Assembly: GCA_010093605.1 (NCBI GenBank)
Contig: MU004182.1
Coordinates: 445,502-509,501, forward strand
Reading direction: 5' to 3'
DNA from: Lophium mytilinum
Lineage: Eukaryota
Length of the DNA stretch: 64,000 nt
Shown piece after piece: positions 17,663-58,387 of the stretch (position 1 is the first letter of the stretch; every line of letters begins with the position of its first letter). A model generated the notes under the pieces. That model was not told where the DNA came from and searched no databases. It worked only from the letters and a program-made list of their open reading frames with translations. Position numbers and translations under genes: made by a program.

Positions 17663-18574
17663 ATGGCCGCCTATATTGATTATCTCAAGGCCCTCCTCAG
17701 CCGCGCCGACGCCAATGGCACCCTACTTGCGGAGGGAGCCCATGGCATTCAGTCTCCTCCCAACGACGAACCCGCAACGGCGACGAAGGCGAGCAATCTT
17801 GCCCGCGAGAACCTCAAATCTCTGGAATCTCTCCTAGCAGAGAATGACCGCAGCCTTCCAGATCAAATCAGAGAGAAGCTGCTGCAACATTCCCGCGTGT
17901 CGACACTATCAGGTCGCGCTTTGAACCTGTTCAATCTGTTGATGGAGCATAAGACCGAAACCGTGTACACCACCATAGGCGCCGTCACCGCTAGTGTCTT
18001 AGGCTATCTGGTGGCCCAGTACGTGGCTCGACAGGCTGTGAAAGAAGAGGGCCAAGACCACGAAGTGGCCGGCTCGAGGCATCGCGTCGCCAAATCCCTC
18101 GAAGCCGGGTCCAAGACGGAAACTTTTGAACACGCGAAGGACCGTGAAGGTGGCGTCGCGGCCCTGAACAACGAGCTAGCCAAGCCGGGGAATGAGGTGA
18201 ACGATATCGAGGGTGGTAACGATGGTGCAGTTGCAGAAGCGGATACAGAGAATCATGTGGACTCGGGCTCACTGCTCAAGACCTGGGCGGAGAATTCGAG
18301 CGGCGCGAAGGACGAGGGAAAGCGTGAGGCTGCCGGAGACCACCAGACCGACGTCCGTTTGCCGACAATAACTATCAGCCCCGGACCTTCCAATACGCAG
18401 GAGCTCGAAGTAGTGGACAACAAGGTCTGCTTTGGCACTACGAATGCCAACCTTCCGCTCAATCAGACTATTGAGAGCGTTGATGGTGACTCCGGTGCGG
18501 ACATCTCTTCACTAGACTTGGACTGGGAGGTCATAGATGATGAGCACGAGGTTGGTTGGGTTGGGGAAGACTAG
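17663..18574 (+). CDS. Orphan single-TM family member A, with C-terminal AIM-like DWEVI
   Basis: Intronless, 303 aa. MAAYIDYLKALL..GIQSPP..LPDQIREKL aligns with B, C and D. Hydrophobic segment IGAVTASVLGYLVAQY, then an acidic tail. Confidence 0.8.
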   Translation: MAAYIDYLKALLSRADANGTLLAEGAHGIQSPPNDEPATATKASNLARENLKSLESLLAENDRSLPDQIREKLLQHSRVSTLSGRALNLFNLLMEHKTETVYTTIGAVTASVLGYLVAQYVARQAVKEEGQDHEVAGSRHRVAKSLEAGSKTETFEHAKDREGGVAALNNELAKPGNEVNDIEGGNDGAVAEADTENHVDSGSLLKTWAENSSGAKDEGKREAAGDHQTDVRLPTITISPGPSNTQELEVVDNKVCFGTTNANLPLNQTIESVDGDSGADISSLDLDWEVIDDEHEVGWVGED

Positions 18575-19750
18575 CGGAGGTTTTTGATCGAGCTGTTGGG
18601 GTCTCGATCGGGTGCCCGAGTTGGAGCAGTACTATGGCAGTCGAATATTCAGTAGGTTTGACGGGCCCCTCAAAATCTCTCTCTCGGCAGTGGAGGATGT
18701 CGATGGTCTTGAGCTCCTCATGTACCGGTATTCACTATATTCTAGAGGATATTGCCTGCGCAATGCCTTGTAACCAAGTTTTCCTGTAGTCATGGCCCTT
18801 TCTTACAGGCCCATATCATTGATTATTATCTTTCTCTTCACGAAAAGCTCTTGCAATGCTCGTGTATATCACCCGCCAAGATCGAACCGCGCTGGAAGCT
18901 CGGTTAAGTCGCGTCGATCCAGGGTCTATTCTATTATAAGAGTGGTGAATGATAGTGAGACTATACAGTCAATTTAATTTTCGCAGCCCCCACCAATCTT
19001 AGGGACTGGAACATTTCGCTCGTGATATGCTGGTAGACGTACTGGCGGACTGATGATGTGGTTGCTTCTCTAAGGTATCCTTCCGGGGCGTCCAGGCTTT
19101 AGCCTGGAATCGGATTACGCTCCCTCCCTGAATGTCTAGGCCTAGCCTAGGTTCGAATCTTGCTCGGGTACTTCTTCTTTTCTACTTTTTGCTGCAATTC
19201 CGGCCTCGTACCGATCACGTAGTCGTGAAGCCTCCATGGTGTCACTAACACCTCTCTAGGACGTGTACCCACTCCGTATCTTTGCACGGGCGTGGCATCC
19301 GGGCCTTTCTCTTATTTGCGTGCGACTTCACGCGTCTCTTAACAGTGGCCTGTCGTCATGACCCATCGTTGGGAACTTTGCAAGTTCGGAGGTCTTCCTC
19401 TACGCTCCTTTCGGTCATAATCGCTAATTCTGTACCTCTCTGTAAAGAAATTCATATAGTGTTTAGTACTGGCCTCCTCTAAGCACTGTAAGTGTGAACC
19501 TGTTTGTTATTCCTCTGTTATTCTGATCAGGGTGAATGCTGTGCATACTTCAAACACGAAATATCCAACAGTACTCGATCCATTCACCAATGCCTATGCG
19601 TTGTGTCTATAAAACCTCGAAGTCCCGTCAACAGCTTCTCTTCCACGTAACACCTACAAATCAAAACCACCACCCACCACCTCGTTGCGAACCTTATTTA
19701 CAAGCAACAGAACAACAAATATTCACCTCAACCAAATACTCAAATTCACC

Positions 19751-20173
19751 ATGCCAGACGCCGACTCAGAGGATCTCTGGGTCCTCCTGGAGGCGGTTCT
19801 GCGCCAAGCCCTCCCTCAGCTCGGAGAGGATTTCAAGACGGCCTGTCCGACTACCACGTGGATCCTTAGCCTGATTATGGAGCACCCGGTGACGGCCGTG
19901 GCCCTGGCCGCAGGGGCACTGGCCATCGCGGCTGTGAGACCTCTAGTGATTTGGTGGACATCTCGAGAGCTAAAGGACACCGGTAGGGAAAAGCGTGCGC
20001 TCTTTAGAAAGGCGCGCGATGCAGACAGCCAGGCCGATCAGGAGAAGCTTCTGAAGCTTGAGGACATATTCAGTCAAGCCATTGATGAATATAACACCGG
20101 ACCGAAAGATGTTCTGCTTGGGAAGAAACATCGCGAGGGTATCGGCGCCACTTTAGCGAAGTGGATAGTCTGA
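19751..20173 (+). CDS. Orphan single-TM family member F (short; lacks the first ~50 aa and the AIM-like tail)
   Basis: 140 aa. EDLWVLLEAVLRQALP..C.TTTWILSLIMEH..AAGALAIA matches B (DELKILLEDVARNLP..CSTTGRVL), A (LLMEH) and D (TAGALAIT). TATAAAA at 19608. Confidence 0.65.
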   Translation: MPDADSEDLWVLLEAVLRQALPQLGEDFKTACPTTTWILSLIMEHPVTAVALAAGALAIAAVRPLVIWWTSRELKDTGREKRALFRKARDADSQADQEKLLKLEDIFSQAIDEYNTGPKDVLLGKKHREGIGATLAKWIV

Positions 20174-20920
20174 GAGTATCAATGACAGGGAACATAACAA
20201 GGTCTAGGACAGCGGCAACAGGGTATAGCTCCTGAATACCTCTTCGCTGATAACAATGGCATATCAAGCATATTGTTTCTGACAAGTGACGTGAGCGACT
20301 TTCCGTTCTGGCTTTACTTTTGCAGGGCTAATTGTACTAGGGCCTGGCATGGGCAGAGATGCGAGCTATCTTGGCTCGACTGATCTGGCACTTCGATATA
20401 GAACTCGATGAGAGCTCGTTGTATTAGGACCGCGAGAAGGTTTCGGCGTGTGAGAGACGTCGCGTTTGACAGTTAGACTCAAGCTGAGGGACTCCTGATT
20501 CTGAGTAGAGCAAGGCTCAGAAGGTAGAGGATATATCTCATCACGGTGACCAGCATATGACGGCTTGGAATGAGATTCATGGCCTGTGGTATATAATCAC
20601 TAACTAAGAATATGTACAGCCGAGAGCTAGCTTCGTGGCAAGTCGCATCTACAGCAATTCACAGCAGTGCACCTGGCAATCCTTGCATAATATATACAGA
20701 AGTTGCGTAAAATCACCTCCATGGATTCACCGCTGGCTTTTGGTGGCATATCAAGCCTATTTAAACCTCCCCTTCCTACAACTTACTCCTTTTCAACTCA
20801 AACACCCCACACCGCGCACCAACCACCACTTCGTCATCCACAGCAACCACCACTTCTTCATCTTCCACAGCATCCGCTAACATCACAACCCCAGCAAGCA
20901 CTTTCAGCTCCTCAATCAGT

Positions 20921-21661
20921 ATGGCTAATTGCATAATCTTCCTCAAGTCTCTCTTGACCCGCAGCGATGCCAATAATACCCTTTCCGCTGAAGTCTACAA
21001 CGGAATCAAGTGGTTGCCTAACGAAGAAGACTTCTACTGGCAGGTTTCTGCCAACAAGACCTGCGGCCTTTCGAAAGAAGCCCAAGACGAGCTGAAGATT
21101 CTGTTGGAAGATGTCGCGCGGAACCTTCCCAATCCTATCAAGAAGGAGTTGATGCAGGTTTGCACGTGCTCGACGACCGGTCGTGTCCTGTACTTCCTGA
21201 CAGGATCCAAGATGAGACTTGTTGGTACGGCTGTGGCAGTGGGACTAGCATATCTGGCTATAAAGTATGTGGTTCGGCATGGAAAGAAGATCCGCAAGGA
21301 GGAGCGGGAGATGTGCGAGATGAAGCTTGCTGAGTTGAAGCGCCAACTGGGAATCAATCTCAACGAAGAAGTCAATGAGCTCAAGGGGACTCTAGTCCAC
21401 GCTGAAGATCTCAAGGGAGCAGTTGCAGGATTGGCCAAGCAGAAAGATCTCGACAAGCTTCAGGATCGGGTCGATACCATCAATAGCGGTGTTGAAGGGG
21501 AACAACTCCAGCAATCTCCCAAGGTGATAGCCGTAGACATGGAGGAGGGAGTCACGGATGATCAGGAGGATGTCACTGCTGAATTCGATGGCGATTCCAA
21601 CGGGTCAATTATTTCTGAGTGGATCGAGCTCGATGAGGAGTTGTGGAAGGAGGCGAAGTAG
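20921..21661 (+). CDS. Orphan single-TM family member B, with C-terminal AIM-like EWIEL
   Basis: Intronless, 246 aa. MANCIIFLKSLL..GIKWLP..TCGLS..LPNPIKKEL..C, hydrophobic LVGTAVAVGLAYLAIKY, then KIRKEER and a coiled coil. Confidence 0.8.
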   Translation: MANCIIFLKSLLTRSDANNTLSAEVYNGIKWLPNEEDFYWQVSANKTCGLSKEAQDELKILLEDVARNLPNPIKKELMQVCTCSTTGRVLYFLTGSKMRLVGTAVAVGLAYLAIKYVVRHGKKIRKEEREMCEMKLAELKRQLGINLNEEVNELKGTLVHAEDLKGAVAGLAKQKDLDKLQDRVDTINSGVEGEQLQQSPKVIAVDMEEGVTDDQEDVTAEFDGDSNGSIISEWIELDEELWKEAK

Positions 21662-22501
21662 GCTGGCGGGACTCTGGAGTGAGTGGAGTGCTGTATCGAG
21701 ATAAGTCCCGTAGCCCTTCATGTGTTAGACGAGCTTTCTGCAGCATTGCGATGGCTTGGGGAGCTCGAGTGTAGTACACCAGCTAATGGAAGCTTCGCAG
21801 ACTATGTATCGTAAAGGGAGGTCATGGTTATCTCTACTTGATTCATGGTACTTTCTCGTGATGTCCTACTATGAACGCCGTTCTGCTTCACTTAGATTTC
21901 ACAGTGACGCAAAAGAACAGAGCAGTGTTGACTTCAAGTGAATGAGTGGCCACTGATTAAAGAGGGGAAGAAAGTGCGGTATTCGTTTTCGAGGGCGCTG
22001 ATTATACCTCGGGAACAAGCTAGAATACAAGCTGAAAAAACCTACTCGTGAAACAACTAGCGGTTTGTCTGAGAGCTCACTCGCAGAATTTCGCAGGCTT
22101 AATGGCCATCACATGCTCCTGTACCTACGATCACAAGCTTCGTGTACCAGGGTATAGTAGCTCGGCGAACCAATGTGTGAGTGTATCTGGAAACGTAGGC
22201 AGTCCTAGCTGTGCACCCTATTTGTCCGTGACCAAATCCAACGCGCACTATGGACAGAAGCGATCACGTCCACGACAGCTGCAATGGCCAAGAACATTTT
22301 AGATTTGGTCACATACGCGCGATATGGCGATAAAATGGCCCACCAAGCCAATTGTGTGATTGAACATCCGATCTACCGCGGAACTATCTTCATAACACTT
22401 TGCGTAGGTGCCGAGCCCGCCCTAATGAGTCTACCACTCTAGCGCTGGCGACGTACAGGATCTATAACAAAGAAACACGTCACAGTCAAGTCCGTGGCTG
22501 T

Positions 22502-24847
22502 CTAGGAGATTCCTGATATAATATCCTCCGCAATAAGCTCCGATAGGGCATCTGTTATTTATCAGCGAATGCATAATTAAATCTGACATGACGCGGAAGT
22601 GAAAGGAGTTGAGCTTACAAATAGTACTCATCGGATGCCCAGCAGGAAGGAGCGGAAAGATGCTCGTATCCACAACTCGCAGCCCTTCAACGCCATAGAC
22701 GCGTCCCCTCGTATCGACGACCGCATTTTTATCACCTTTCTTACCCATGGAGCCTAGAAAACCTCGCCATTAGCATTCTAAATAGTTCAGAGGAATTTCT
22801 TGAGAAATGCGTACATGTAGAGCTTGCATGATATCCGTTATCAGCCTTCTTCCTCACCCATTCGAGAATCTGCGCATCTGTGACAACATCTGGGCCGGGC
22901 TCAACCTCGCTGACCCATACGCCAGTCGCTCTGGCCAGCTCTCTGAGTCGCTTGATAGCGCCGACGATTAACTCCTCTTCGGCCTTTGTACTCATAGCAT
23001 TGACATCGACGATGGGTCGCTCGTGGGGATCAGCGCTACGAAGAGTGACGCTACCGCGGGAGAGGATCGTTTGCACAGCGACGGTGACGGACATGTAGTT
23101 GTTCGCAGCGGGTTTGTCGGGAGGATTAGAGCCAGGGGATAGGCCCAGATATTCGAGCTCGGGAAAGTCGTCGGAGAAGGTCGCGAGTGCTTCTTGTGTC
23201 TCTGGAGAGAGAGACGAGCGGTTGGGGAGTTTCTCCCATCCTATACGTGGGTCAGAGACTAAATCTAGCAGATGCAGTTGCATAAAGTAGGTTACCAATT
23301 ACACCCCCTCCCACACCAGTAAGAGGTCCAGTTTGTTCCGAAAGATAAGCCTCCACGGCCTCTGCATGAAGGGTCTCGTTGGTAGTCACGCCCGAGTTTG
23401 TGGTGACATTTGTTTCGTGGCTCGTGAAGATAAACAGATGGTCCTGAAGGGTGTGTTAAGTCGTTTTCTTGAAGAGAGAAGCGCTCGCGAATACATACCC
23501 ACATGTTCTTGCCGACTCCAGCAAGATCTGAAACAACGGGAATGCTGAAATTCGAAAGCGCGTCGGCTGGACCAATGCCCGAAAGTAAGAGAAGATGAGG
23601 AGAGTGAAACTGTTTTAGGTAAGCAAAGACCTACCAGGTGGGAGCGAGAGTAGTCTTACTACGCCCGAGGAAACGATGACCTCCTCCTTGGCCGAGATGG
23701 TGTACTCTGCACCGTTTGTTTCGACTAGCACACCCGTAGCCTTCTTCCCATCGAATACGATTTTCTTAGCGAGAGTTCTAAGGTATAGTTTGAGAGCTGT
23801 CTTATCAAGAGCCTCTTGCAGGAATGAAGCTTCCGAGGAGCTTCTGGTCTGGAATTCAGCATTGACTGCAAGCGTGCTTGGGGCATAGCCGTCCAGATGG
23901 CCACTGTTCAGTCCCTCGATTGGTTTAAAACCAGTCTTGGCGAATGCCTTTACCATGAATTGATCAAACGCTGGCCTAAAATTGGGGAAGGATGCTTCGA
24001 GTGGCCCTCCGGTCGGGCTATACATCTCGGGTTCATATGGTATGGAGACGTTAAGACCGATCTTTTCGAGGTTCGGAGGAGTGAACTTAACACTCTTCTT
24101 GAGGTATGGGAGGAACTTGTCCCACGTGAAAGACGAGTCGCCTACGAGATTGGACCACGTATCGTATGCGCCTTTGTTCGTTCGATGGAAGATCATGTCA
24201 TTGAGAGCAGAGCTGGGATCTTATTAGCTCTTGTGTAGAGCAGAGCTTATTTAGTCCACGCACCTCCCACCCAAAGTTTTTCCTGTAGAGGGATTAGCTT
24301 TCGCTCATTGGTGATGTCTCGTTCTCTGCTTACCTGCGGAATAATGTATTTGTCGTCCCCCAAAGCCCTAAATGAGAATGAGCACCGTATCTACCTCCCA
24401 CTTATCAAGTCGCCGCGGGCCAGCCACTCACCTTTTGCGGTTCAGTGATGATGCCCCAGTCCACTAACACCGGACTCGGTTCCAAGTCATTGAAACTCAG
24501 ATACTTGGCTCCGTACCCGGGAACTACGCTTGTGTTCCCATTGTCCAGCTCATAAAAGCTGCCCGCCTCGACTACTGCAACCGTGATGTTTGCACTCGAG
24601 GCAGCTAGTCGCGAAGCAGTTGCTAGCCCAGCTGTCCCACCGCCTACTACCTGCTTTCTTTGAGTAATTTGCGTCTGATTGTGAAAGAGAAGGTACGCAC
24701 TACGTAGTCGTATGTCGCGTTCTCGGCGAGGATGCCGAAGGAATTTCCAAATAGTCGTGTCCTGCCGTTCGTGTTGGTGGCGCCAAAGATTGCAGACGCT
24801 CCTGCGCACAAGCTAGATAAAGCGGTAAAAAGATGTGTCCAACGCAT
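22502..24847 (-). CDS. Secreted GMC oxidoreductase, AtC/PatE-like (multi-exon)
   Basis: Signal-peptide-like N-terminus, YDYV-VVGGGTAG FAD-binding motif, VEAG, EVIVSSG, YHASSTC, VVDTRGRVYGVEGLRVVDTSIFP and GHPMST. Several canonical introns; stop at 22502-22504. Confidence 0.9.
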
Positions 24848-26079
24848 GGTTCTTGTTACTCTCCCTTGAGGCTACTGAAAAGTAAAGACCTCATCACGAA
24901 TCGATCGATTTGCTGTTCTTATACGTCTGATCACTCAGTCGCGTCTTTCCGACTCGTTGTTGATTTCTCAGCGTCGTCATAATCCTCCAAAATTTTCTGA
25001 AAGATGTGGGGTCATGCAAGGAACCAAAGCCAGGCCTTGACCTTCACGCGCAAGTTCGCTTCGTTAGTTCAGTACCGCGAGGCCTGTATGGAGGACGGAG
25101 AAGCATATCTTACCCAGTACCGGGGACAGTGGGAGCTGCATGAACCCACGAGCTAGGAAACGAGCTCGGTTCCAGTCCGAGAGCTGTCTCGTTGCGGTGC
25201 GGTTGGAGCCCGTGCTGCTAACATGACGAAAGATGAGACGATACCACAACTACTCGAGATGCCAATTCCGACTTACCGGAGTGGTGCGAAACGCTCGATG
25301 AGGAAATGTTTGGTTCTGCCTAATTGGGAAAGGTGGCGCAACGATCAACGCGGGGATTCCGGAGATCATGGCTGCATGGTGTCAGGGTGTCTCGGGGACC
25401 GAATGGCGGGTACGTTACCACTAGGCCGACAAAATGCGAAGGGAAGAGAGGGATGAGAAACTGTTGGTTTTGAACGTTGGCGCCTTGCCGCGCTCGACAA
25501 TGTAGGAACTTTAAGGCTGTGAGAATGAATTTAATACTTTCACGTCCCGTCAGCACATTGAGGCTAATGCAGCGATATGAAGGGCAATGTGAAGGGCGTT
25601 TTCGAGTACTTCAGGCTTAGCGGCACTCATGAAGTAGTCTGGTGCATTCGAGGTTGTTTATTGGGTCGTGAGACAAGCTGTGGGGTGGCTTTTGAGAGAC
25701 GAAAAAGCAATTCGGACATTCATTGGATAAGCACCGACGCAAGTACTGAAATGTGGTGATTTCAACGCTGAAAGGAAATGAATCGGAATACATAATAATA
25801 ATACAGTGACAGGCCACAAGTTTAGGAACACTGGATCGACACTGTTTGGGGTCCCCCTATAGGATTTTGAAAACCTAAGGGTGATGTCGAGGTTCAAGCG
25901 GTACAGATTGGACTACCTCTGGATTAATGGTCTGCTCTGCAGCTAGGGTACCCCCGACAATGGTGTCAGGTGGGCAAATTGGAACCAAGCTGTAATGAGT
26001 CCGTGTGTCTAGACTTATAGCTTACTACTGTAACATAGTTCACTCATTGAAAATGTATTCTCACATTGACGTAGCTAGT

Positions 26080-26844
26080 TTAGGCACCACCGCCGCCTCC
26101 TGCTGCCCCTGCTCCGCCCCGCCTCCTCTCGGCCTCCATCATTGCTATAAAGCTGACAACGATTTGATCCAGAAACTGCTCATCGAGTCCCTCGATCAGT
26201 ATATTGAGCTGCCCATCCTTAGAAAATCTCAGCGAGCGCGCGAATGCTGCAAAAACTTTACCGGTGGCGGCACCCTCAAGTTTCAAGCCCCCGCCACTCA
26301 GTGAAGAGGTGCCATAGTCGCTTGTGCCCTTCCAGTAAAACTGTCGCTCGGGGCCGGCAGGCAATTCAACGAGAAAGCGGCGTGTGAAGACGCCGTCCTT
26401 GCTCATCTCAGCCTTGTGCTTCCCCCCAAAGGCTAAATCTATGCGCGAGGTGAAGTGGTGGTATTTGACGCTGCCAATGACCGGGCCTGACGAGTTCACG
26501 CGGCGGATAAGGAGGTCTGCGAGGCCTGATCGATAGTCAACAAAGTACGCTGGTGTGCGCTTGTCGGGGAGGGTAAATGTGACGCTCTTGCGGCCTGTGA
26601 AGCCGCCTTCGCTGTAGATGTTGTACTGAGCGGCTACGGCTTGAGGTCCACGAGATGCGTATATTGTGGGCTCATTGGCCCTTGAAGCAGCGACGGCATT
26701 CTGTGATCGGGTACTGTTCTGTAATGTGGGCTGGGCCATGGAGGCCACTGTGCGGTAGGATGGTGGTCGGGACGGGGTGTACTCTGGACGCGTGTCTTCT
26801 TGGACTTGATCAGGTGTATACGTTGGGAGATACGTGGTATCCAT
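26080..26844 (-). CDS. Hypothetical protein with N-terminal PY-like motifs and a possible tubby/LURP-like C-terminal domain
   Basis: Likely start MDTTYLPTY. LPTY and PPSY motifs, beta-rich region (FYWKGT..LKLE..VFAAF..DQIVVSFIAMME) and Gly/Ala tail. Confidence 0.6.
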   Translation of the reverse strand: MDTTYLPTYTPDQVQEDTRPEYTPSRPPSYRTVASMAQPTLQNSTRSQNAVAASRANEPTIYASRGPQAVAAQYNIYSEGGFTGRKSVTFTLPDKRTPAYFVDYRSGLADLLIRRVNSSGPVIGSVKYHHFTSRIDLAFGGKHKAEMSKDGVFTRRFLVELPAGPERQFYWKGTSDYGTSSLSGGGLKLEGAATGKVFAAFARSLRFSKDGQLNILIEGLDEQFLDQIVVSFIAMMEAERRRGGAGAAGGGGGA

Positions 26845-27281
26845 TGCGGCGAGTCGTCGTCGTCGTCGAAGCGCAGGTGCAAATGCCTTCGAGAGAGCAG
26901 TATAATTTGCGATTCTTCGTGGGCGTCGACGCAAATACGAAGGTAGGGCAGAAGAAGTGATGAGACGGTCCCTGTAGCTGCGGTCGTTACTGAAGATATT
27001 AGCAAGGCGGATGGGTTATATCCATTGTGATGCTGGGAGCAGCAGTGTTGGGCAGGTAGGTAGAAGTGCGTCGAGAGAGGCGCAGCGGTTCGGACTTCCG
27101 GGCATCCTGGCGTGCCTAGCAACTCGTAGACATATACTGTAGGCGACTGGCACCAATGTCTCTTGCTTAGGAGAGCTGTGCCGCATTCTTGCAGGTTTAC
27201 GATGTCGAGAGGGTATGTTGGATTGGCGGTGCCGAAGGACGTGTTGGCCTCGCGGTGCGCCTCGCCTGCTCAGCACGCGGG

Positions 27282-27672
27282 GCATGACAAAGGTGGCACT
27301 CTATTCTGCCTGTTGTACCCCTGTCTGCCGCTGCTCGAAGTGCTTTAATAGATTTTATATATATAAACGAGATAGAAACTCTTAGCTTTAGGCTCTCTAA
27401 AAAGCCATTAAGGTACTCTAAACAGTAGTAGACCGGGGCACCTACTATACCTACTGGGTAGAATAGTAATAAGAGAGCGTGGAAGATAAGTAGTAGTAGA
27501 AATTAGCAGTCTATAAATTAATAAGATATACCTACTACTTCTATACTTGTTTAGCACTGTTAGAGGTCCTCTAGTATGCTCTTGCTACTTATTGAAATAC
27601 TAGCTGTGGCAAGCCTGACAGCTCTTCGGGCTAGGTAGTGTTGAACTGCTGTAGTGTGCCACTTTTTCATGC
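27282..27672. mobile_element. AT-rich, RIP-like degraded transposon remnant
   Basis: TpA-rich tract at ~27345-27600 ending in an LTR-like terminus GCTGTGGCAAGCCTGACA (27620). Flanked by an imperfect inverted pair, GCATGACAAAGGTGGCAC (27282-27299) and GTGCCACTTTTTCATGC (27656-27672). Confidence 0.5.
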
Positions 27673-27974
27673 TAGCGTTCTCAGCCCGGTCACGTGTCGC
27701 ATCGGACGTCAACCTAGGTAGTCCCATCGTAAAGCTCTCCTTTCACCCACCGCAGTCCTCACAGCCACCCAGCATCTCGCCCATTCGGTAGTAGCGGCGC
27801 CACCGCAATCTGATCCATTCCTTACGTACCAAGACCTACACATTACTAAGATTGCGCTTTCCTTCGTGCTATGCAATATTCAACATGTAGTACAAGGCCT
27901 ATCAAAAGGCTTTCCCAGTCGACCACACTCGAAACATATCCAAACCAACCCCCACCCTTCGTGGGACCTCAGAT

Positions 27975-32675: not shown

Positions 32676-33632
32676 CTAAGCTAATTTAGACTCCTTCCCC
32701 TCTGTATTCTCCACCAGCTCCCAATTAGAGGAGATATCCTCGGCCTTCAGTCTAGCTTCTCTCTTAGCCCTATAGGCTGCATCTGAGACCATCCAACCCT
32801 CGCTCTCTAGCCTGCCTTGGTCTTTCAGCCAATTGGAGAGAGGAATAAGGAGTTCGGGTATATCTTCCTTCATAGGGCATTCTCCCGTTGTTCCTTCATT
32901 TGCCTCCCCAGATTCAGGCCCAGGTTTTCCAGCGTGATCCGTCGCCACTGACGACTCCTCCTGTTCGACGGTACGTTCCGGCGTCTCGAGTGCTGCGCTC
33001 TCCGTTCTAGCCTTTGCGCTGTCCAAAGAGAGCCTCTTCACCTGCACCTCCTCGGTCTTCTCAGCAAAATCGGACAGAGTTTCAGGCCATTGGTAGGTCA
33101 GCTTCTCAAGCAGTTGGCCGTATCGTTCACGTTCCTTTACTCGGACATCTTTGACATGACGCACAAGCTGCCTATCGTACTTTTCTCGCTCCTCTGCTTG
33201 GACAATTCCGGAAAGTCGCGCAAGTTGTTGAAAGGACCACTCCCGCTCCTCCATTCGAACCTTCTCGACATAACGGTTGAAGTGTTGTACGGCTAAGTAT
33301 CCAACGACTGTCAGGCTGAGGGCGCCTGTCGTAGCGTAGGCGATGTGTTCTTTACGTGCGAAAAGGAAGGCGATAATCGTACTGAATGCTGACTTCTGAA
33401 AGGTGCAGTGCTTGGCTAATTGTCGTTGAATGTGGTCAGGAAGACGAGACAGATACTCGGTAAGGATCGTCTTCAGGTCTTGCTGCTTCTCTGCAGAGAG
33501 ATCACAGACTGTAGCACCATTGAAGAGGCTGCCACTAGGAAGCGACTTGATCCCGGCGGCGACTGCGGGTGGCAGCGCGTTCTCACCAGTGGCACCGAGG
33601 AGAGTCTTGAGATAGTCCACACAAGCGGCCAT
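32676..33632 (-). CDS. Orphan single-TM family member C, with C-terminal AIM-like NWELV
   Basis: Intronless, 318 aa. MAACVDYLKTLL..GIKSLP..VCDLS..LPDHIQRQL..C, hydrophobic TGALSLTVVGYLAVQH, then EKVRMEER. Confidence 0.8.
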   Translation of the reverse strand: MAACVDYLKTLLGATGENALPPAVAAGIKSLPSGSLFNGATVCDLSAEKQQDLKTILTEYLSRLPDHIQRQLAKHCTFQKSAFSTIIAFLFARKEHIAYATTGALSLTVVGYLAVQHFNRYVEKVRMEEREWSFQQLARLSGIVQAEEREKYDRQLVRHVKDVRVKERERYGQLLEKLTYQWPETLSDFAEKTEEVQVKRLSLDSAKARTESAALETPERTVEQEESSVATDHAGKPGPESGEANEGTTGECPMKEDIPELLIPLSNWLKDQGRLESEGWMVSDAAYRAKREARLKAEDISSNWELVENTEGKESKLA

Positions 33633-34463: not shown

Positions 34464-35144
34464 TCAAACCCCATTAACAGCTTCCACAATCTCCCACTCT
34501 CCGTCGGAAAGAAGCTCAGTTCTACGTCTCGAAGAAGAACCTTCGGTGCCAACAGTGGAGGAAGCATCATTGAAGAGAGGCCCTTTGGCCGCCGCTTTCA
34601 TACCTTCGTCGATATGTCCATCGGCCGTTGCATCCTCTTCAGTCTCCTTCACAATGCTCTCTGTAGCGTTAGCGTTCCTTCCTGCGTCTGATGCCACAAT
34701 GAAGTCCTCGCACTGCATCGATATGACGCTCTTGCTACCCTTCAACCATTTCTTGATTCGGCTAGAAACTGAACGGCCTTCCCCATCGTCTTTTCCAGTA
34801 GCCCCGTTCCATACCGCTTCGGTGCTCCGCTCGGATCGAGCCGGCTCATTCTCGCTCAACAAACCTGATAGGTGGGCCACTGTGTCTTGTAACGCTTGGT
34901 TCTGCGCCTTCATGGAAGCTTGAAGATCCCTGGACACGTCGACCAAAGACTGATTGAACGCCTGAGAATCAGCCAGCTTCTGTTCGTAGCCCTTGCGCAC
35001 CTCTCTCCGCATGCGCTCCATTGTTTGGTTCATATATTGCATAGCCGCGAATGCGATCAACGTGGTTACGAGTATGCCCGTAGCAAGGTAAGCCATAGCT
35101 GTCTTGTTGTCAAGGATGTCAAAGATGCTCTTGCAGCGAGCCAT
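34464..35144 (-). CDS. Orphan single-TM family member E (N-truncated), with C-terminal AIM-like EWEIV
   Basis: 226 aa from MARCKS. ATGILVTTLIAFAAMQY..ERMRRE..GYEQKL aligns with D (TAGALAITLIGYATVQY..EKVRKE..GYETQL). TATAAAA begins at 35328 on the minus strand. Confidence 0.7.
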   Translation of the reverse strand: MARCKSIFDILDNKTAMAYLATGILVTTLIAFAAMQYMNQTMERMRREVRKGYEQKLADSQAFNQSLVDVSRDLQASMKAQNQALQDTVAHLSGLLSENEPARSERSTEAVWNGATGKDDGEGRSVSSRIKKWLKGSKSVISMQCEDFIVASDAGRNANATESIVKETEEDATADGHIDEGMKAAAKGPLFNDASSTVGTEGSSSRRRTELLSDGEWEIVEAVNGV

Positions 35145-35550
35145 TCTAATGTGGGGACCTGCAAGGGGTATGTGCCTTTTTGACTGTTGTATGAACGGAG
35201 GCAACGGGTCGATTGGTAAGATAAGTGTTTGTGTGTGGATTTTCCGGCTGTGGTGAGCGGATGCGTGGTGGGTTGGTGGGTGTGGATGTGTAAGAATGGC
35301 TACGAGGAGGAAGATTGAAGGTTTTATAGGCCTCTCAAGGTGACCCAAAGGGGCCATCATTGGGGTGAATGAGGCAGACACAAATTGACACACCAATTTT
35401 CCTGAGATTTCCCTGGCCCAGTAGTCTACGCCATAGTCTCGGGGCAAAAGTGCATGGTCAATATATAGAACACGACAATCATAAGACTTCGGAGGAAAGA
35501 GAACACGTTTGCTTCTATAGCCCTGCTGCTGTAGATTAATGTAGAAGACG

Positions 35551-35709: not shown

Positions 35710-35861
35710 AGATTTGACTAAATCTAAAAGTTATCTTTGCACTATATGAACGCTACTTCATCGCAACATAGATAGGAAAGACGCGTGGTAAAGACTGTAA
35801 AGACAGTCACAACGTTATTTTCGCGACTACATAGCTCCGACAACCACCGTCAAGTACCATC

Positions 35862-49730: not shown

Positions 49731-52700
49731 GACGACGGCGATGGTTGCTCGATTCAGAGGCACGGGAAGAGGCGGTAGTAGAGGTAGTGGCAGGTGGTGC
49801 GGTGGGGTTGTGGGGTGTGTCACAGGTTCTTTATTACGGCGTGAGGCACCAGGCGTGGGCGCGGCAGGGGGCTTGGCATCAGATTCAGCCCTTGCTGAGA
49901 GCAGACAGTGCACCACCACCACTACCCAGCCCGATACGAGTCGGGATCGCGATTCCCATGGACCAGGTGCTGCCATCAGAGCCGCCAATGTGCGGCCAGC
50001 AAAGAAGCCCGCCGCGACGCCCGCGAACCAGCCCCTGAGACAACACCAGCCTAAAGGAGTATCCCTAGCCTAATCGTAGCCACCGGCCTGTCAAGCTTTC
50101 TGGGGCGTCGGGAGGCGGGAACGTTACTAACGGGCCATCCCGTCCGCGAGACGGCTCCTCGATGGCGCCATCGGCCCTGCTGCATGCGCTACGGAACTGG
50201 CTAGCAACGTTGTCTGCCGGTCTCGCCGCTCGCGTGTAGCAGAATCGTAGAAATGGGACGCCAGCCCGGTTCTCTCCAGCTCGGCATGCCGCGCGAGGAT
50301 GGATTCGAGGCAGCAGTGGTGACGACCTGCCCTGTGCGACCATGGTGCCGTCTTCTGCAACAACAGCTGCATGGCACGTCCAGCGTACCGCGCATCCGCC
50401 TACGAATCAGGCCAAGTTCTCCTATGCACGTCAACCGAGCTGCACGATACGGGCTAGGATGTCCGATAAGTGCCATGGGTGGGGCGGTTCTCTTCCGCCC
50501 GAGGGAAACCTCCCCATAAAACACGAAATCTTCGCTTATAGTGCCGTACAAACGTCTCGAAAAGCATCAATTAGCTCGCTTTGTCTTACAGCCTGAGTTA
50601 TCTCTTGGCCTCTGTTCGAAACCGGCAATTGCATTCGGCCCAAGAAAGTTGCACAGCTTTTCATCGCTCCAGACATCGGTTCAACACGAGCATGATACAG
50701 AGTCTGAACGTAAGTGGTTCAGCATTGTCGTCTCTTAGCCACAACCATCACCACGAAAGATTGAAAAACACATGTATTCTTTCTGCGCGGTTTCTCCCGG
50801 CATGGCGGAACTTGGCCGCTGCGAACTGCACTCGCAGTGCCGATCCCGTTTCAGACCCAATGGCATTCTGGGAGTGACGCAGAATCCCACACGAATCCCA
50901 CGCGAAATTGTTCTCAGGCTCGGGCCGAACGCCGACCGTTTCAATCCTTCCCGCCAACGGCCGGCAGTGGCGTGCAGGTGGCAAGTCGGCCATGCCATTT
51001 CTGACTTCCGGTGAACCCGCGCCAAACTCTAGCTACACAGCACCTAGCTACATCTAGCATCTATCATTGAAAGCCGACTGTCCGCTAGACAGTCGTCGAT
51101 ACTAAGTATCCGCGGATCGAGGTCTACATTCCTGAGAACGAGAGCGCGGGACAAGGATTCGACTACTATCAACATTACTCCCTCGGCAAAGAAGCTTTAA
51201 AAATGAAGTACCACGTGGCACGCCCCTGTATTGGCTAAGCTAAATATGTATAGCTCTCAAAATTCGTACGAGTCCACCGTACGACACGCAGCACTTTGCA
51301 TGCTTCAAAACCGAAGATCCAACCCTCTATGAACCTCTCCCACATGGCAACACTCCGCCATGACGTAGGCGGCGCACGCAGGTGTCTTGCAAAACCCCGG
51401 GATCACGCTATATTAGAACGTTTTAACCAAAGGCGTACGTCCCAATGTCTCACATTCGCATCATAGCTAATCTATATGTGCTGTCTTATCAGCTCTAGAT
51501 GTAAGGTCCCCGAACTCGGGTCTTGCGCTGTACGTAATAATGGGAGATTTTATTATTTTCCAAAACTGGGTCCCATACCTACTCACTTACCTAACGGCCA
51601 AGGAATACACGACAGCGACTGGTGTTCCATCCTCTCTCAACGTGGAAATGGTCATGATATCAGCCATCTCGAAGAGTTGCTAGCTTTTTAGCCGATGTGC
51701 AGATACTTCACAGCTTCTTTCGTTTTCACCGTCCTCATTACTCACATATGGTGTAAGCCTCATTCGCACACACTGCCTTCTTAGGAATAGCCATGATAGG
51801 ATGCCACTAGATCCATCCTTTAGAGCTGGATGCACGCTTCGGACGCTGACGTATCAATTCTAGGAAGACGCGACTTGCGGAGCGTCGAGTCGAAAACAGT
51901 CGACACCAATTCGGCTCTAAGCTTCTGCTCTGGTCATCTCGAATCTTGCCTCTGGCTTAGAGATCAATGGCCGGCAATAAAAGCGCAAGGAAGAGTTGTT
52001 GGTTATCGAGAGCACGAGCCGGCAAGAACACGAGGTTGATGCGTGGCTAGATGGCGCTAGAGGAGCCATTCCCATACTCTCGGGTATCCAAAGCTCCACT
52101 TAATCACGTCTAGTGTTCCAGTACGAAGTACCCTGTGGACTTTCACATGCTTCAAAAAATATGTCGCCATCTGCCTTGCTCCCAGATTTCAGTCCCGGCT
52201 TCAAAAGCGTATCTGACTTTATGGAAGACTAAACATAGTCCTGGGCCTCCTTAACCTACGTACCTCACCGAGTTTTCGAACGTTTAAGCGACATCATACA
52301 ACCCAAGTGTACCCTCCACTGTTTCGTACTCGCATTCCCCCTAGCTACTCTCTCCAAGACCCATTCGTCCGCCTACCTAGATAACGCGGCCAAGATGCAC
52401 CTGCACAAATCAGCTCACTTTCCCTCCGCCACTTCTCTCAAAATCTATCACCAAGCCGACTCCCCTCTAGCTTACAGCCTAAGCTTAAGCGAAATGATCT
52501 GGAATAGGAATGTGCTTACACGCGCCCATGGCTATCTCAAACTCCGATCCGCCAACTCAGATCTCCCATATTCCACAGTACACCAAGGCATACCCTCGAC
52601 GGAAAGAACGGACACGCAGAGCAGCCGTATTACGCCCGTGGGATTACGGCCGTCATGAGCTTACGTGATAACCCTTTTTTCCAATCAACTGAGGATGGTT

Positions 52701-55351: not shown

Positions 55352-56668
55352 CACACGTGAGATAGGTATAGAGGATCTACCTTTCGGGAGAAGATAAGAT
55401 GAAGATGAAGGTGTCGAAGCGGTCAAATTCGTGGTGACGTTGACATAAGCCCAGTGCACTAGGGGCTAGATCGGTGCCTATAATTAGCGGAAAACTTTAA
55501 ATGACCCTGCCGTCTCAGATAAGACTAGTTCTCGATATTGATCTCTTGTTTGGATGAGGCAGGCATTTGCAGTGGGATGTTCTGATTGTGCTGTTGCGAT
55601 TTAATCCGAAGACGGAGAGTAAGAGCCTTTAAGAAGATCACATTCATTGAAACATCAGCGGCCAAGGCAAGAAGCGATGATTCGTTGCGCCCTACGGAGT
55701 ACTAGAGAAGTGCAATAGTGTTCTGGTCCGGTCCTGGAGTTCTGTGTTAATAACCAGGCCATTGCTCAGCAGCCAAGGTGATGACTCAGTGAGCGGGCCT
55801 AGCCCTACGGTGCCTGACGAGAGGATCAGTCCACTTTCTAGGGCACGCGAGTCCAGGTCTAGTCACGAAATTCTCACCATTAGACTCTGTCTCTTTTTAG
55901 ACTATGCGAGCTCCTCTATAATAGTGGTAGCCTTGCATTTAAACTCCACAGTGCCATGCACAGGCACAGATGTAGTACCTTGATCATCTAAAGGGGAATA
56001 GTATAGGCCGAATCAGGTAAGAGGCGCTTCTGACTACAAATCTACCTGCCCACAATCCTCTATACTACACCAGCTTCGACAAGACCTTTATCACAACCAA
56101 GGCATCGTTAGAAGCAGTTCTAATCACTAATCCAGCATACTTGAACATCAAGAACGGACAATTACTGGAATACGAGCATCCAACCAATCAGAAGCCGAAG
56201 ATTGCGGACTTCCGAGAGGGGAAAACCTCCCGAACTCGGAACCTCAACACTGTACTATTCGGCCTTTCGTTGTGATAGAATACATTCTACGAAATCAAGG
56301 GCCATGAGCTCCAGTGTCTGGTTTAAAAAGTTGAGCATCAGTGAAAGCCAAGAGAAGGTCGCCGGGTAGTCGAGTACAAGCCATCAATGAACGCCAGCTT
56401 CTCGGCAACTATAGCTAGGATCCCTGCTCTAGTAGAACAGACTGGGTTTTTGAGGTACGCAGCTCTTCTCAAAAGAGATGATCGTGATGATCTTGAAAAA
56501 CTAGTGGGGACAGGGACAGGGAGATATTATTCATGTCGGTTCATTGGCTACAACTAGCTACCATACCCTTAACTCGTGTATGCAGGTTATAAGAATGCAA
56601 TATATCTCCAAAACAATAGAAAGCCGCGACAGAAAACAACATCCACGGCTCTCCCAATTGTAGTGTGC

Positions 56669-58387
56669 CTACTGGTCAAATACGGCGCCCTCCCAACCTT
56701 CTGACTCTGCTGTATTCAGCTCATCCCACTCAGACAAAATATTCGATTCGGCGGTCTTGTCGTTAGAAGAGTTTTGAGTATCAGCTGAAGGTAGCTCGAC
56801 CGGGTCCCACTCCGAAGAAACAGACTTGGGAGACTCATTGCTGTCCTCAATGATGTTCGGGCATGGAGCTGAAGCCGCGTCGGCAAGTGCTACTTCGAGT
56901 TCGACCTCCCGTTTCAGAGCTTCATTTTTATTTTCATTTCCATGAAGCAGTGCCAATTCTGCATCGGTCCACGTGGCATGATCTTCAGTCGTCTTTGCTT
57001 CAGGGAAATCGTGTAGGGACTCGGCCATATCCTCAACAGTCGATAAATCCCCCTCAGGGCCTTCGGTGTCTCCAACAGCCTGTTCAATCACCACCTTGAT
57101 AGCGGCGAGAATGGGGTCAACTTTCGACGGGTTGTTATGGATCAGGGCCTGCTCAAGCAAGGCCTGAGAGATGAAGCGCAGTGCAGTGCGAACATCATTG
57201 GTATTCACAACTTCCTCGTGATACTTCCTTAGATGATCTGACTCGGCCTTGAAAATCATCTCCGAGAATTTCTTCTTGATCTGCACCAAGACGTAGTCAT
57301 GATGCTCCCGGTCGGCCGTGCAAACGTCAAACAGAGAGCGGATCTTAGGAGCCTGGTCGGAAATCCAACTGCTAACATTTTCGGTGGTCGTATTGCCATC
57401 CAGGAAAGCAGCGTTTTGTGGAAGCGTGTCAACCAGCCTGTCTGCAGCTGTATGGTGTTCATCAGCTGCCGCAGAGCTGGACTCCGAGCCCTCTATCATC
57501 TCATCTTTCTTGGGATTCAAATTCTCGGACTCATACTTGGAAGATCCAGGTTTTGGGATCTGCGCTTTTTCTTCGCCCTCGTCATCGCTTTCCTCGGCAA
57601 TCCGGGTCATCACTTTCGTAATGATGGCCTCAAGCTCGTCTGCTTGCACCAGCGTTTGCTGCCTTTTTGCCAGACCCTCGACAAGCGTTACAATTCTCCC
57701 TAGAAGATTCGTTTGCACATTCTCATCTTCAGCTCCCTCGATTCTAGCCTTGACCAACTCTAAAATCTGCGCTTTAGTGCTCTCCCTATCCTTCTCCAAT
57801 TCATCGACTCGCATGTCCGTAGCTTTCTTTGCGGCGTTGAGTTCTCCGATCTGAGTGATCAGCTCATCTCGAGCTTCTTCAACTTTCCGATCGAGAGACT
57901 CAGTGAAGCGGCGTTCGAGGGCAGCAAGCTTGACGTGGTACACGGCTTGTTTTTCCAGGAGTTGGGTCTCGTAGCCAGCTGTTTCCTTCGCGAGGAACGC
58001 CCGCTCCTCCTTCCGAACCTTCTCAATGTGTTTCATCGCGTACTGGACCGTGGCATATCCGATCAGAGTAATGGCCAGTGCACCTGCAGTGATACTGGCT
58101 ACATTAGACGGCTTGTATTCGATGAGGAACTTAAGAACACCGGTGGGCTTCTTGCACTGGCAGTATACTTGAAGCTCGTTCTTGATCCGGTCGGGTAGGG
58201 CATAGCTATGATCCGCAAGGATTGCTTTTATATGTTGTTGAACCTCTTGGGGGAGGTCGCACGTTGCAGCGGTGTATAGGGAACTGCCGGTAGGAAGGAA
58301 TTTGATGGCAGTGGTGAATGATTTCGGCAGTACACGTTTGTCCTGGCTATTGATAAGAGTCTTTAGGTACTCAAAGCACGACGCCAT
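56669..58387 (-). CDS. Orphan single-TM family member D (longest), with two AIM-like motifs EWDPV and EWDEL
   Basis: 572 aa from MASCFEYLKTLI..AIKFLP..TCDLP..LPDRIKNEL..C. Hydrophobic segment, EKVRKEER, long coiled coil and acidic tail. Confidence 0.8.
   Translation of the reverse strand: MASCFEYLKTLINSQDKRVLPKSFTTAIKFLPTGSSLYTAATCDLPQEVQQHIKAILADHSYALPDRIKNELQVYCQCKKPTGVLKFLIEYKPSNVASITAGALAITLIGYATVQYAMKHIEKVRKEERAFLAKETAGYETQLLEKQAVYHVKLAALERRFTESLDRKVEEARDELITQIGELNAAKKATDMRVDELEKDRESTKAQILELVKARIEGAEDENVQTNLLGRIVTLVEGLAKRQQTLVQADELEAIITKVMTRIAEESDDEGEEKAQIPKPGSSKYESENLNPKKDEMIEGSESSSAAADEHHTAADRLVDTLPQNAAFLDGNTTTENVSSWISDQAPKIRSLFDVCTADREHHDYVLVQIKKKFSEMIFKAESDHLRKYHEEVVNTNDVRTALRFISQALLEQALIHNNPSKVDPILAAIKVVIEQAVGDTEGPEGDLSTVEDMAESLHDFPEAKTTEDHATWTDAELALLHGNENKNEALKREVELEVALADAASAPCPNIIEDSNESPKSVSSEWDPVELPSADTQNSSNDKTAESNILSEWDELNTAESEGWEGAVFDQ

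Follow-up and report, generated by a model that had tools for sequence, protein, structure and literature searches.

Putative Atg8-interacting motifs at the C-termini of an orphan family of predicted membrane proteins in Lophium mytilinum

A 64,000-nt stretch of Lophium mytilinum DNA (the window) carries six members of one gene family, A, F, B, C, E and D (Table 1), and raises the question of what function may be served by a tryptophan motif, W-x-x-[ILV] flanked by acidic residues or serine, near the C-termini of most of their products. A sequence-only reading of the locus had taken this motif for an Atg8-interacting (AIM/LIR) one and the proteins for membrane-anchored autophagy receptors. The six motif cores that it had placed on the DNA were recovered exactly by ORF translation and by an independent six-frame scan. 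It had counted five members; all five carry the motif, but the window holds six, with F lacking it at the C-terminus.

In the predicted plan of a member, a helical N-domain of ~95 aa precedes a single hydrophobic segment, behind which come a long helix and then a disordered, acidic tail. The N-domain is common to A, B, C and D (tblastn E of 1e-13 to 3e-28), with 28-39% identity among paralogs and conserved cysteines at positions 4, 43, 76 and 78; it is partial in F and missing from E. A Pfam search with the proteins A, B, C, E and D matched no family. An HMM search of 1,835,955,588 representative proteins retrieved seven matches at the cut-off (E of 0.001 or better): three are encoded in the window, and the other four lie on a single contig of Mytilinidion resinicola. 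As far as is known, the family is an orphan restricted to one fungal lineage, its members being the six clustered in the window and their relatives in M. resinicola. Since no more than two genomes are known to carry the family, few independent lineages underlie the conservation of the motif.

Gene A is transcribed with its motif in frame: an unspliced RNA contig with a loose poly(A) end spans it gap-free (positions 17075-18840), and among family members RNA support is limited to this gene. Gene E resembles D and P0008 over the hydrophobic segment and the helix next to it but nowhere else (E of 4e-5), and a search upstream of gene E found no N-domain remnant. The true start of gene E is likely Met73, at 35144, which would place only about 16 residues ahead of the segment. 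Judged by its sequence, gene F is a diverged or truncated family member: no C-terminal W-x-x-[ILV] was found in it, nor any motif-bearing frame downstream. It is similar to P0009 (tblastn E of 1e-8), its product is listed among the proteins of the same contig, and its ortholog has no canonical motif.

Table 1. Family genes, hydrophobic segments and tail motifs in the window (translations use the standard code)
Feature	Positions (nt)	Strand	Composition or context	Translation or match
Gene A (P0001, 303 aa)	17663..18574	+	N-domain, hydrophobic segment, acidic tail	contains ...ISSLDLDWEVIDDEHEVGWVGED
A hydrophobic segment, residues 100-118	17960-18016	+		
A motif core WEVI	18524..18535	+	LDLDWEVIDDE	six-frame scan; xLIR match LDWEVI
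A second conserved Trp	18557-18559	+	GWVG	
Gene F (P0010, 140 aa)	19751..20173	+	partial N-domain, hydrophobic segment	
F hydrophobic segment, residues 49-67	19895-19951	+		
Gene B (P0002, 246 aa)	20921..21661	+	N-domain with 4 Cys, hydrophobic segment, acidic tail	contains ...SIISEWIELDEELWKEAK
B hydrophobic segment, residues 100-118	21218-21274	+		
B motif core WIEL	21620..21631	+	SIISEWIELDEE	xLIR match SEWIEL
Gene C (P0003, 318 aa)	32676..33632	-	N-domain, hydrophobic segment, long helix 97-215, disordered tail	contains ...DISSNWELVENTEGKESKLA
C hydrophobic segment, residues 97-115	33288-33344	-		
C motif core WELV	32712..32723	-	DISSNWELVEN	fits W-x-x-V
Gene E (ORF P0004, 298 aa)	34464..35360	-	without N-domain	contains ...LSDGEWEIVEAVNGV
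E hydrophobic segment, residues 89-107	35040-35096	-		
E motif core WEIV	34485..34496	-	LSDGEWEIVEA	xLIR match GEWEIV
Gene D (P0005, 572 aa)	56669..58387	-	N-domain with 4 Cys, hydrophobic segment, long helices, acidic two-motif tail	contains ...SVSSEWDPVE...NILSEWDELNTAESEGWEGAVFDQ
D hydrophobic segment, residues 96-114	58046-58102	-		
D motif 1 core WDPV	56798..56809	-	SVSSEWDPVE	xLIR match SEWDPV
D motif 2 core WDEL	56717..56728	-	NILSEWDELN, then conserved ESEGWEGAVFDQ end	xLIR match SEWDEL

The motif is present in all five long-tailed paralogs and in both full-length orthologs, and the tail around it diverges. When these seven tails were aligned with MAFFT, all fell in register on an invariant tryptophan; position +3 is I, L or V in 7/7, position -1 is D or E in six (N in the remaining one), and position -2 is serine in five. 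The family consensus reads [IL]-x-S-[DE]-W-[DE/I]-x-[ILV]-[DE]. A second tryptophan follows 8-11 residues past the motif in five of the seven tails (A, B, D and both orthologs), the one in B lying 8 residues downstream (ELWKEAK). Gene A and its ortholog P0007 are 45% identical overall, with DWEVI in the former against EWEVI in the latter, whose tail has SEWEVI...DWVG; W-V-G is found in both. D and its ortholog P0006 (60% identity) preserve both motifs and the terminal GW.GAVFDQ, the counterparts in P0006 being SEWHEV for motif 1 and SDWDEL...ESEGWKGAVFDQ for motif 2. The motif blocks of this pair are 65% and 73% identical, compared with 41% and 21% in the flanking disordered stretches.

The tails had been described as unrelated apart from the motif. 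The distal parts do align poorly among paralogs except at the motif block, but the membrane-proximal part is a long helix shared across members, and an extra helical region of D (about residues 326-440) is 70% identical to that of its ortholog. Loss of the motif in orthologs had been named as evidence that would speak against an AIM/LIR; since the motif is retained in both orthologs that can be judged, as it is in the paralogs, and matches AIM/LIR descriptions, this objection is removed for those two.

The tail motif exceeds chance expectation. Throughout the six-frame translation of the window (127,996 residues), the acidic/Ser-flanked W-x-x-[ILV] rule is satisfied at 12 places, six of which are the family tail motifs. 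In composition-preserving shuffles (20,000 per tail, with five window and two ortholog tails), every one of the seven tails gained the motif among its final 45 residues in 1.4-2.8% of trials, figures that do not represent independent trials because the paralogs share ancestry. Among 60 control ORFs outside the family (ATG start, at least 100 aa), one had a W-type xLIR match in its last 45 residues, and it runs antisense to a GMC oxidoreductase gene. The published xLIR pattern is fitted by five of the six window motifs, the exception being C, which fails at position 2 (N); in the 1,877 residues of the family, the pattern matches nowhere other than at these motifs. The iLIR authors found xLIR matches to be about equally frequent in shuffled and real sequences, and AIM-like patterns give many false positives.

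The proposed fit to the AIM/LIR consensus is borne out by published descriptions. PMC7615515 describes binding as favoured where positions -2 to -4 are acidic and where a phosphorylated serine adjoins the core, as in SSFEEL of TEX264. The FIR consensus that it gives, D/E/S/T-D/E/S/T-[FWYILV]-x-x-[ILV], is matched, by S-E-W or S-D-W, in three of the six window motifs and all three ortholog motifs. ER-phagy receptors are described as binding Atg8 more strongly when the second core residue is acidic and when the residues directly past the core are acidic or hydrophobic (PMC7335187); the second core residue is D or E in five of the six window motifs. We consider the family members to be candidate receptors that dock on Atg8, and possibly on Atg11 as well, with a probability of about 0.4.

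The motif could also function in the cytosol as a short linear motif but bind some other partner than Atg8: Atg11 alone (Claw-type FIR), kinesin-1 (W-acidic), a coat or adaptor recognizing acidic di-Trp, or a SUMO-type beta-strand site. We regard such a partner as unlikely. In its favour, a plain AIM does not need the second tryptophan, and acidic di-Trp signals bind COPI subunits. The FIR consensus is described as overlapping almost completely with that of LIR (PMC7615515). The kinesin-1 W-acidic motif, as described in PMC5450233, likewise centres on a tryptophan with Asp/Glu neighbours, lies in disordered acidic sequence and often occurs in pairs. However, Leu or Met at W-2, a frequent mark in that description, occurs in one of the six window motifs, and the invariant +3 [ILV], the second defining position of an AIM, is foreign to it. 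Tryptophan is also rare in SUMO-binding cores, and kinesin-1 of filamentous fungi is not known to have light chains.

A single hydrophobic 19-mer occurs in every protein (Kyte-Doolittle mean 1.44-2.15), in agreement with the proposed membrane anchor, and the family proteins are predicted to be single-pass membrane proteins; analysis of hydrophobic segments revealed no reticulon-like double hairpin. The tail starts with a basic, heptad-like helix (KVRKEERE...), and the long helix behind the segment is probably a coiled-coil. The AlphaFold2 model of C has a helix at residues 97-215 (pLDDT 75-83) and values below 50 in the tail around the motif; this low confidence is consistent with a disordered tail, as the sequence-only reading had it. 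The disordered part is Cys-poor and strongly acidic: across the seven long tails, five of them encoded in the window and two belonging to full-length orthologs, net charge ranges from -8 to -53.

The cytosolic tail on which Atg8 docking was premised is weakly favoured by positive-inside counts, K+R being higher on the C-side flank of the segment in nine of ten sequences, with one tie. The net-charge difference (C-side minus N-side), however, is small in these ten (-1, -1, 0, 0, +1 four times, +3 and +4), being near zero in several members, and the N-domain without a signal peptide would on its own favour the opposite orientation. The tail would then be lumenal or extracellular (type II), with the Trp block serving, e.g., an intermolecular contact, a secretory sorting signal or cell-wall association, which we find improbable. 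Proteins with such a predicted helical N-domain ahead of a moderately hydrophobic segment commonly keep the N-terminus cytosolic, and a ~95-aa N-domain without a signal peptide usually remains in the cytosol; the tail would therefore lie in the lumen or outside the cell. The tails contain 0-4 N-x-S/T sequons, and the N-domain cysteines are open to two readings, disulfides in the lumen or metal or acyl sites in the cytosol. Against this orientation, a basic heptad-like helix followed by strongly acidic, Cys-poor disorder appears more typical of cytosolic domains, and the short N-terminus of E, if it starts at Met73, would easily allow an N-out arrangement.

Quite unlikely, finally, is a reading in which this orphan family is young and evolves fast, has little if any conserved function and keeps its motif by descent from one ancestral tail and by mild compositional bias: the handful of relatives in two genomes, the common ancestry behind the shuffle trials and the degraded look of two of the six window copies (E by its N-domain, F by its tail motif) would suit it, but gene A is transcribed, the motif blocks of the D orthologs are better preserved than the adjoining disorder, and all seven long tails retain the tryptophan, the residue at +3 and the acidic flank despite the low identity of the N-domains.

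The likeness to TEX264 and Atg40 that had been drawn extends to layout but not to homology or to a double hairpin. TEX264, a mammalian ER-phagy receptor, is described as a single-pass protein whose C-terminal region faces the cytoplasm and includes a long spacer, predicted as disordered in the family as well, and a LIR close to the terminus, in which the serine directly before the core is CK2-phosphorylated (PMC9346472; PMC7615515). In the family, too, a membrane segment is followed by a spacer and by S-S/E-W-x-x-[ILV] at the end; however, it has no sequence relationship to TEX264, Pfam having matched no family to any of the five proteins searched. In TEX264 the segment is N-terminal and followed by a gyrase-inhibitor-like domain, whereas the ~95-aa domain of the family, missing from E, comes before the segment and a long helix after it. 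The aromatic residue is Phe in TEX264 and Trp in the family. The family resembles the helix-assisted AIMs of Atg40, FAM134B, SEC62 and RTN3 in the acidic second core residue and in the acidic stretch with a conserved tryptophan that follows, but Atg40 and FAM134B have reticulon-like hairpin anchors in place of a single 19-mer. Atg19 and Atg34, the budding-yeast Cvt receptors, have an acidic W-x-x-[LI] at their very C-terminal end. Several accessory Atg8 sites are described beside the main one of Atg19 (PMC7615515). The two motifs of D and its further tryptophan resemble these, but Atg19 and Atg34 are soluble cargo binders without a membrane segment and without homology to the family. Atg32, Atg39 and CCPG1 are described as single-pass receptors combining Atg8- and Atg11/FIP200-binding motifs (PMC9346472; PMC7615515). 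Their motifs are in the N-terminal cytosolic part, and the C-terminus lies in the lumen or, for Atg32, in the intermembrane space, whereas the family motif is C-terminal.

In the Atg8-docking reading that we prefer, a cytosolic tail, binding to Atg8 or Atg11 and a receptor role are inferred, and the tail motif would be a functional Atg8-family interacting motif. Its Trp would occupy the W-site of lipidated Atg8 and the +3 Ile/Leu/Val the L-site; the upstream serine and acidic residues would strengthen binding, perhaps once phosphorylated, and the same motif residues may also serve an Atg11 Claw-type (FIR) site. With the motif docked on Atg8, the proteins would therefore tether their own membrane, or material held as cargo by the N-domain or the central domain of D, to the forming autophagosome.

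The N-terminal 130–190 residues were found to be common to the products of genes A, B, C and D when each was compared with the window by tblastn (E-values of 1e-13 to 3e-28), while the product of gene E matches that of D over ca. 100 residues around the hydrophobic segment only (E = 4e-5). A sixth member, gene F (140 aa), was found via its orthologue. Thus, the five carriers of the C-terminal tryptophan motif listed by the sequence-only reading are all related, but the family in the window is larger.

The shared N-terminal domain (N-domain) of ca. 95 aa is predicted to contain five short helices and is 28–39% identical between paralogues. The single hydrophobic 19-mer of each protein has a conserved G-A-L...G-Y pattern, and a basic juxtamembrane stretch, KVRKEERE, continues into a long helix (residues 97–215 in C, pLDDT 75–83 in the AlphaFold2 model). 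The tail that comes after the helix is acidic and is modelled with low confidence. The mean pLDDT was 59.1 for C, with the motif-bearing residues 299–309 below 50, and 45.0 for D, with residues 503–572 below 50; these low values are only a proxy for disorder, the alignments behind them are shallow (10 sequences for C and 2 for D), and the models are too poor for a fold search.

The predicted E protein has no N-domain: the part of its ORF before Met73 is rich in proline and histidine and has no match, and neither an N-domain exon nor a remnant was found upstream of the gene. F has a partial N-domain only and no C-terminal motif, and no motif-bearing exon was found downstream of it. The F protein starts with MPDADSEDLWVLLE, an acidic/Ser-flanked W-x-x-L at the N-terminus, which is probably structural since in alignments this stretch coincides with one of the N-domain helices of the family. 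In D alone, two disordered stretches enclose an extra all-helical region (residues ca. 326–440). This region shares 70% identity with its counterpart in the Mytilinidion resinicola orthologue, which is above the conservation of the coiled coil of D; no relative of it was detectable, and it is a candidate partner-binding domain. Inspection of A–E by eye revealed no C-terminal H/KDEL, di-lysine or terminal SKL (C ends with ...SKLA). Coordinates of the family genes and of other features are collected in the table.

Family genes and other features of the window
Feature	Position	Strand	Remark
Overlapping ORFs with internally repeated peptides	570–1050	−	
539-aa ORF	1303–2922	−	unrelated to family; no Pfam match
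Acidic Trp motif near C-terminus of the 539-aa ORF	1342–1353	−	
193-aa ORF	8831–9412	+	no Pfam match; unrelated to family
Gene A	17663–18574	+	family
Gene F	19751–20173	+	family
N-terminal W-x-x-L of F	19778–19789	+	
Gene B	20921–21661	+	family
Secondary-metabolism-like gene set	22368–49976		interleaved with family
GMC oxidoreductase	about 22368–25400	−	spliced in RNA contigs
DUF6593 protein gene	26080–26844	−	within 25774–27223
FAD monooxygenase	27975–29470	−	
Multi-exon membrane protein	29672–31735		spliced
Gene C	32676–33632	−	family
Gene E	34464–35360	−	family
P450	35862–37381	−	
KS-AT-DH-KR-ACP polyketide synthase	41676–46637	+	
Zn2Cys6/fungal transcription factor	47110–49976	−	
Gene D	56669–58387	−	family
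Extra helical region of D	57071–57412	−	

The six tail motifs reported earlier (two of them in D, SEWDPV and SEWDEL, hereafter D1 and D2) were recovered without change, the peptides on translation of the five ORFs and the coordinates in a six-frame scan. The pattern scanned for was a W-x-x-[ILV] core with two or more D/E/S/T at positions −3 to −1 (relative to Trp), two or more D/E among the five residues made up of the two inside the core and the three after it, and neither K nor R between position −3 and the end of the core. It retrieved 12 places in 127,996 residues, half of which are the reported tail motifs. An acidic Trp motif, QMDEYWENIKLE, is also present near the C-terminus of the unrelated 539-aa ORF.

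The last 41–47 residues of seven tails (those of the five long-tailed window paralogues and of two full-length orthologues) were aligned by MAFFT. As can be seen from the alignment, the Trp is invariant, position +3 is always I, L or V, a hydrophobic residue is found at −3 to −5, and a second Trp follows 8–11 residues downstream in 5/7 tails. In composition-preserving shuffles (20,000 per tail), an acidic/Ser-flanked W-x-x-[ILV] appeared in the last 45 residues in 1.4–2.8% of trials, compared to 7/7 for the real tails. The product of these frequencies is ca. 5e-9 if the five window paralogues are treated as independent; given their shared ancestry, it is a measure of retention and not a P-value. 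Contrary to the loss in orthologues that had been considered as an outcome speaking against the proposal, the W-x-x-[ILV] core is present in all three orthologue motifs, as it is in all six from the window. Between the D orthologues, identity amounts to 65% and 73% in the two motif blocks, versus 41% and 21% in the adjoining disordered stretches; between the A orthologues, the last 26 residues are 46% identical, versus 36% mid-tail. Judged from these identities, the motif blocks are conserved islands within a disordered region that is diverging, as is usual for functional short linear motifs.

According to the available part of PMC7615515, LIR motifs require acidic or phosphorylatable residues just before the core and no basic residues in it, and acidic residues at −2 to −4 touch basic residues of the Atg8 N-terminal helix. 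In the family, position −1 is D/E in six of the seven tails and N in one, position −2 is Ser in five, and no K or R is found from −3 to +3. The published AIM/LIR consensus, which the motifs had been said to fit, is matched by the core throughout and, in the form of the xLIR (iLIR) regular expression, by five of the six window motifs, but not by SNWELV of C, which fails at position 2. Two of the three orthologue motifs match xLIR as well, SEWHEV failing at position 4 (H). Across the six window proteins (1,877 residues), xLIR matched five times, each time at a tail motif; 60 non-family ORFs (11,678 residues) gave four Trp-type matches, one of them in the last-45 stretch, in an antisense ORF. The number of matches to this expression is similar in shuffled and in real sequences (PMC5119064, available part).

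In Atg40, FAM134B, SEC62 and RTN3, binding is strengthened by an acidic residue at the second core position and by a short acidic/hydrophobic helix that follows the core (PMC7335187, part available). The second core residue is D/E in 5/6 window motifs, and an acidic stretch with the conserved Trp follows; this Trp may be an accessory Atg8 contact. The FIR consensus bound by the FIP200/Atg11 Claw is D/E/S/T-D/E/S/T-[FWYILV]-x-x-[ILV], and some motifs serve both partners (PMC7615515, same part). It fits three of the six window motifs (B, D1 and D2, all S-E-W) and all three from orthologues (S-E-W or S-D-W), while A (L-D-W), E (G-E-W) and C (S-N-W) each fail one position. Docking of the last 42 residues of A with an Atg8 stand-in (Pezizomycotina-type, from a metagenome contig; Pfam PF02991, E = 2.7e-51) gave scores of 0.06 and 0.09 versus a mark of 0.34; run without controls or alignments, by a method unvalidated for peptides or disordered chains, it counts neither for nor against binding. 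The family motif resembles the C-terminal Trp-type AIMs of yeast Cvt receptors.

The best single reading, to which as a hypothesis we assign a probability of ca. 0.4, is that the family members are membrane-anchored receptors whose tail motif docks Atg8. The conserved terminal block, [IL]-x-S-[DE]-W-x-x-[ILV], is carried on a membrane-anchored stalk made of the helix and the disordered region. The stalk would face the cytosol, and the side chains of Trp and of the +3 residue would fill the W- and L-sites of lipidated Atg8, with the motif as an added β-strand. The upstream Ser would place docking under kinase control; in TEX264, binding of SSFEEL needs CK2 phosphorylation of both Ser (PMC7615515, in the part available). 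Atg11 may be recruited by the motif block or its flank, the long helix may pair proteins and so provide avidity, and D would offer two or three sites per chain.

It is also conceivable, though rather unlikely, that the tail motif binds a cytosolic partner other than Atg8. The kinesin-1 W-acidic motif shares the acidic-flanked Trp with the family, but the invariant +3 residue is not part of it as described in the available text of PMC5450233. The L/M usual there at W-2 is found in only one of the six motifs (A), and the kinesin-1 motif was rejected as a description of the family.

The likeness to TEX264 and Atg40 drawn in the sequence-only reading stands for layout only. The layout is closest to TEX264, a single-pass protein whose spacer is disordered and whose terminal LIR, flanked by Ser, faces the cytoplasm (PMC9346472, available part), the side of the tail being a prediction for the family; there is, however, no homology and no reticulon-like hairpins. 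Membership in the TEX264 family was ruled out: no Pfam match for the five proteins, no match above chance for D among PDB sequences and no gyrase-inhibitor-like domain were found. Reticulon-homology receptors of the Atg40/FAM134 kind were ruled out likewise, with no second 19-residue window above a Kyte-Doolittle mean of 1.5 in any of the 10 family sequences.

Docking of Atg8 by the tail presupposes a cytosolic tail, and the topology prediction that had been called for gave a divided answer. Exactly one hydrophobic window was found in each of the 10 sequences (Kyte-Doolittle mean of 1.44–2.15). In the 15-residue flanks, the number of K+R is higher on the C-terminal side in nine sequences, with one tie, which by the positive-inside rule places the tail on the cytosolic side. 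The net-charge difference (C-side minus N-side) is weak, however (−1, −1, 0, 0, +1 four times, +3 and +4), and a helical N-domain of ca. 95 aa without signal peptide more usually stays cytosolic, which points the opposite way. N-domain cysteines at positions 4, 43, 76 and 78 are present in B, D and the D and E orthologues, three of them in C and none in A and its orthologue; such coordinated presence and absence suits either disulfides in a lumenal N-domain or a metal/acylation site in a cytosolic one. We consider the chances of a cytosolic tail to be roughly two in three; a non-cytosolic tail, on which the motif would be out of reach of Atg8, is the improbable alternative.

Expression was judged from contigs of one run, taken as RNA by guess only. 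In neighbouring genes, the contigs skip 13 stretches that are 47–100 bases long and bounded by GT..AG or CT..AC; together with one contig ending in an A-run, these intron-like stretches indicate that the run is spliced, polyadenylated RNA. One contig spans 17075–18840 without gap or difference; therefore, gene A is transcribed unspliced, with the motif in frame. The transcript ends ca. 265 bases past the stop codon. Genes F, B, C and E have no cover in this run (17000–36000 compared), which says nothing on their expression.

To determine the reach of the family, 1,835,955,588 representative proteins were searched by HMMER with a profile of four N-terminal halves. The search retrieved seven matches at E ≤ 0.001, three of them the window's own and the other four (P0006–P0009; accessions KAF2814515, -517, -519 and -520) from M. 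resinicola (Dothideomycetes, Mytilinidiales). By best matches, one each of these is the orthologue of D (60% identity), A (45%), E and F. All four lie on a contig of one length, and the order of accessions suggests that they probably form a compact cluster too. The public models of the E and F orthologues (P0008 and P0009, respectively) appear truncated or wrongly read towards the 3′ end: the former ends inside the helix at 158 aa, and in the latter an acidic ...EDRIDGEWNLD gives way to residues that are hydrophobic and basic. These models may thus not show the true C-termini of the two proteins, or a motif there.

For A–E, no Pfam family scored above the gathering score (best E = 0.015). Among the candidates listed, a word-index search with protein C (P0003) returned itself alone and one with the 10-sequence profile returned three proteins of the window's own contig alone. 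The ESM Atlas gave no usable match by features and only structures with TM < 0.5; phmmer with D against PDB sequences gave one chance-level match (E = 0.74). Within the collection of papers searched, none joins 'Mytilinidion' and 'autophagy'. By these searches, the family is an orphan known from two genomes, both of non-model species. To judge from the representative library, this genome would have all its copies within the window, although closer paralogues would hide behind one representative. So narrow a distribution could also be that of a young family without function, which is unlikely beside the conserved motif blocks.

The window is eukaryotic, and its long ORFs include, in addition to enzymes listed in the table, Zn2Cys6 regulators, Sir2, Nnf1 and GCD14. 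The interleaving of the family with polyketide-cluster-like genes does not seem to be conserved, since the accessions of the four genes in M. resinicola are almost consecutive. An RNA contig covers the DUF6593 protein gene end to end. In the 193-aa ORF, the N-terminal part is rich in Pro and Ser, and the C-terminal part is strongly charged and resembles a coiled coil. Repeated peptides at the left end of the window (…SINW…FQYIGSINW…, …VDKLDGYISFTSTVQLVDKLEDYI…) indicate that the DNA is tandemly repeated there.

To our knowledge, selective-autophagy receptors are mostly unknown outside yeasts and mammals and, since their sequences are not conserved, are found through motifs only. If the receptor reading is true, the proteins described here are candidates for new, non-homologous members of a known functional class. 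A further-reaching and quite speculative version is that the locus is a lineage-specific array of membrane receptors docking both Atg8 and Atg11, with a constant module of helix and terminal motif, diverged N-domains and an extra cytosolic domain gained by D, each paralogue choosing its own membrane domain or client to be turned over in the vacuole. In that case, a receptor family unrelated to known receptors would have been born and expanded within one small fungal family. With a textbook Trp-type AIM block as the only constant part of its tail, a clustered family of this kind would illustrate cleanly the origin and diversification of receptors, and its members would be the first candidates in filamentous Ascomycetes for membrane-anchored receptors with a TEX264-like layout.
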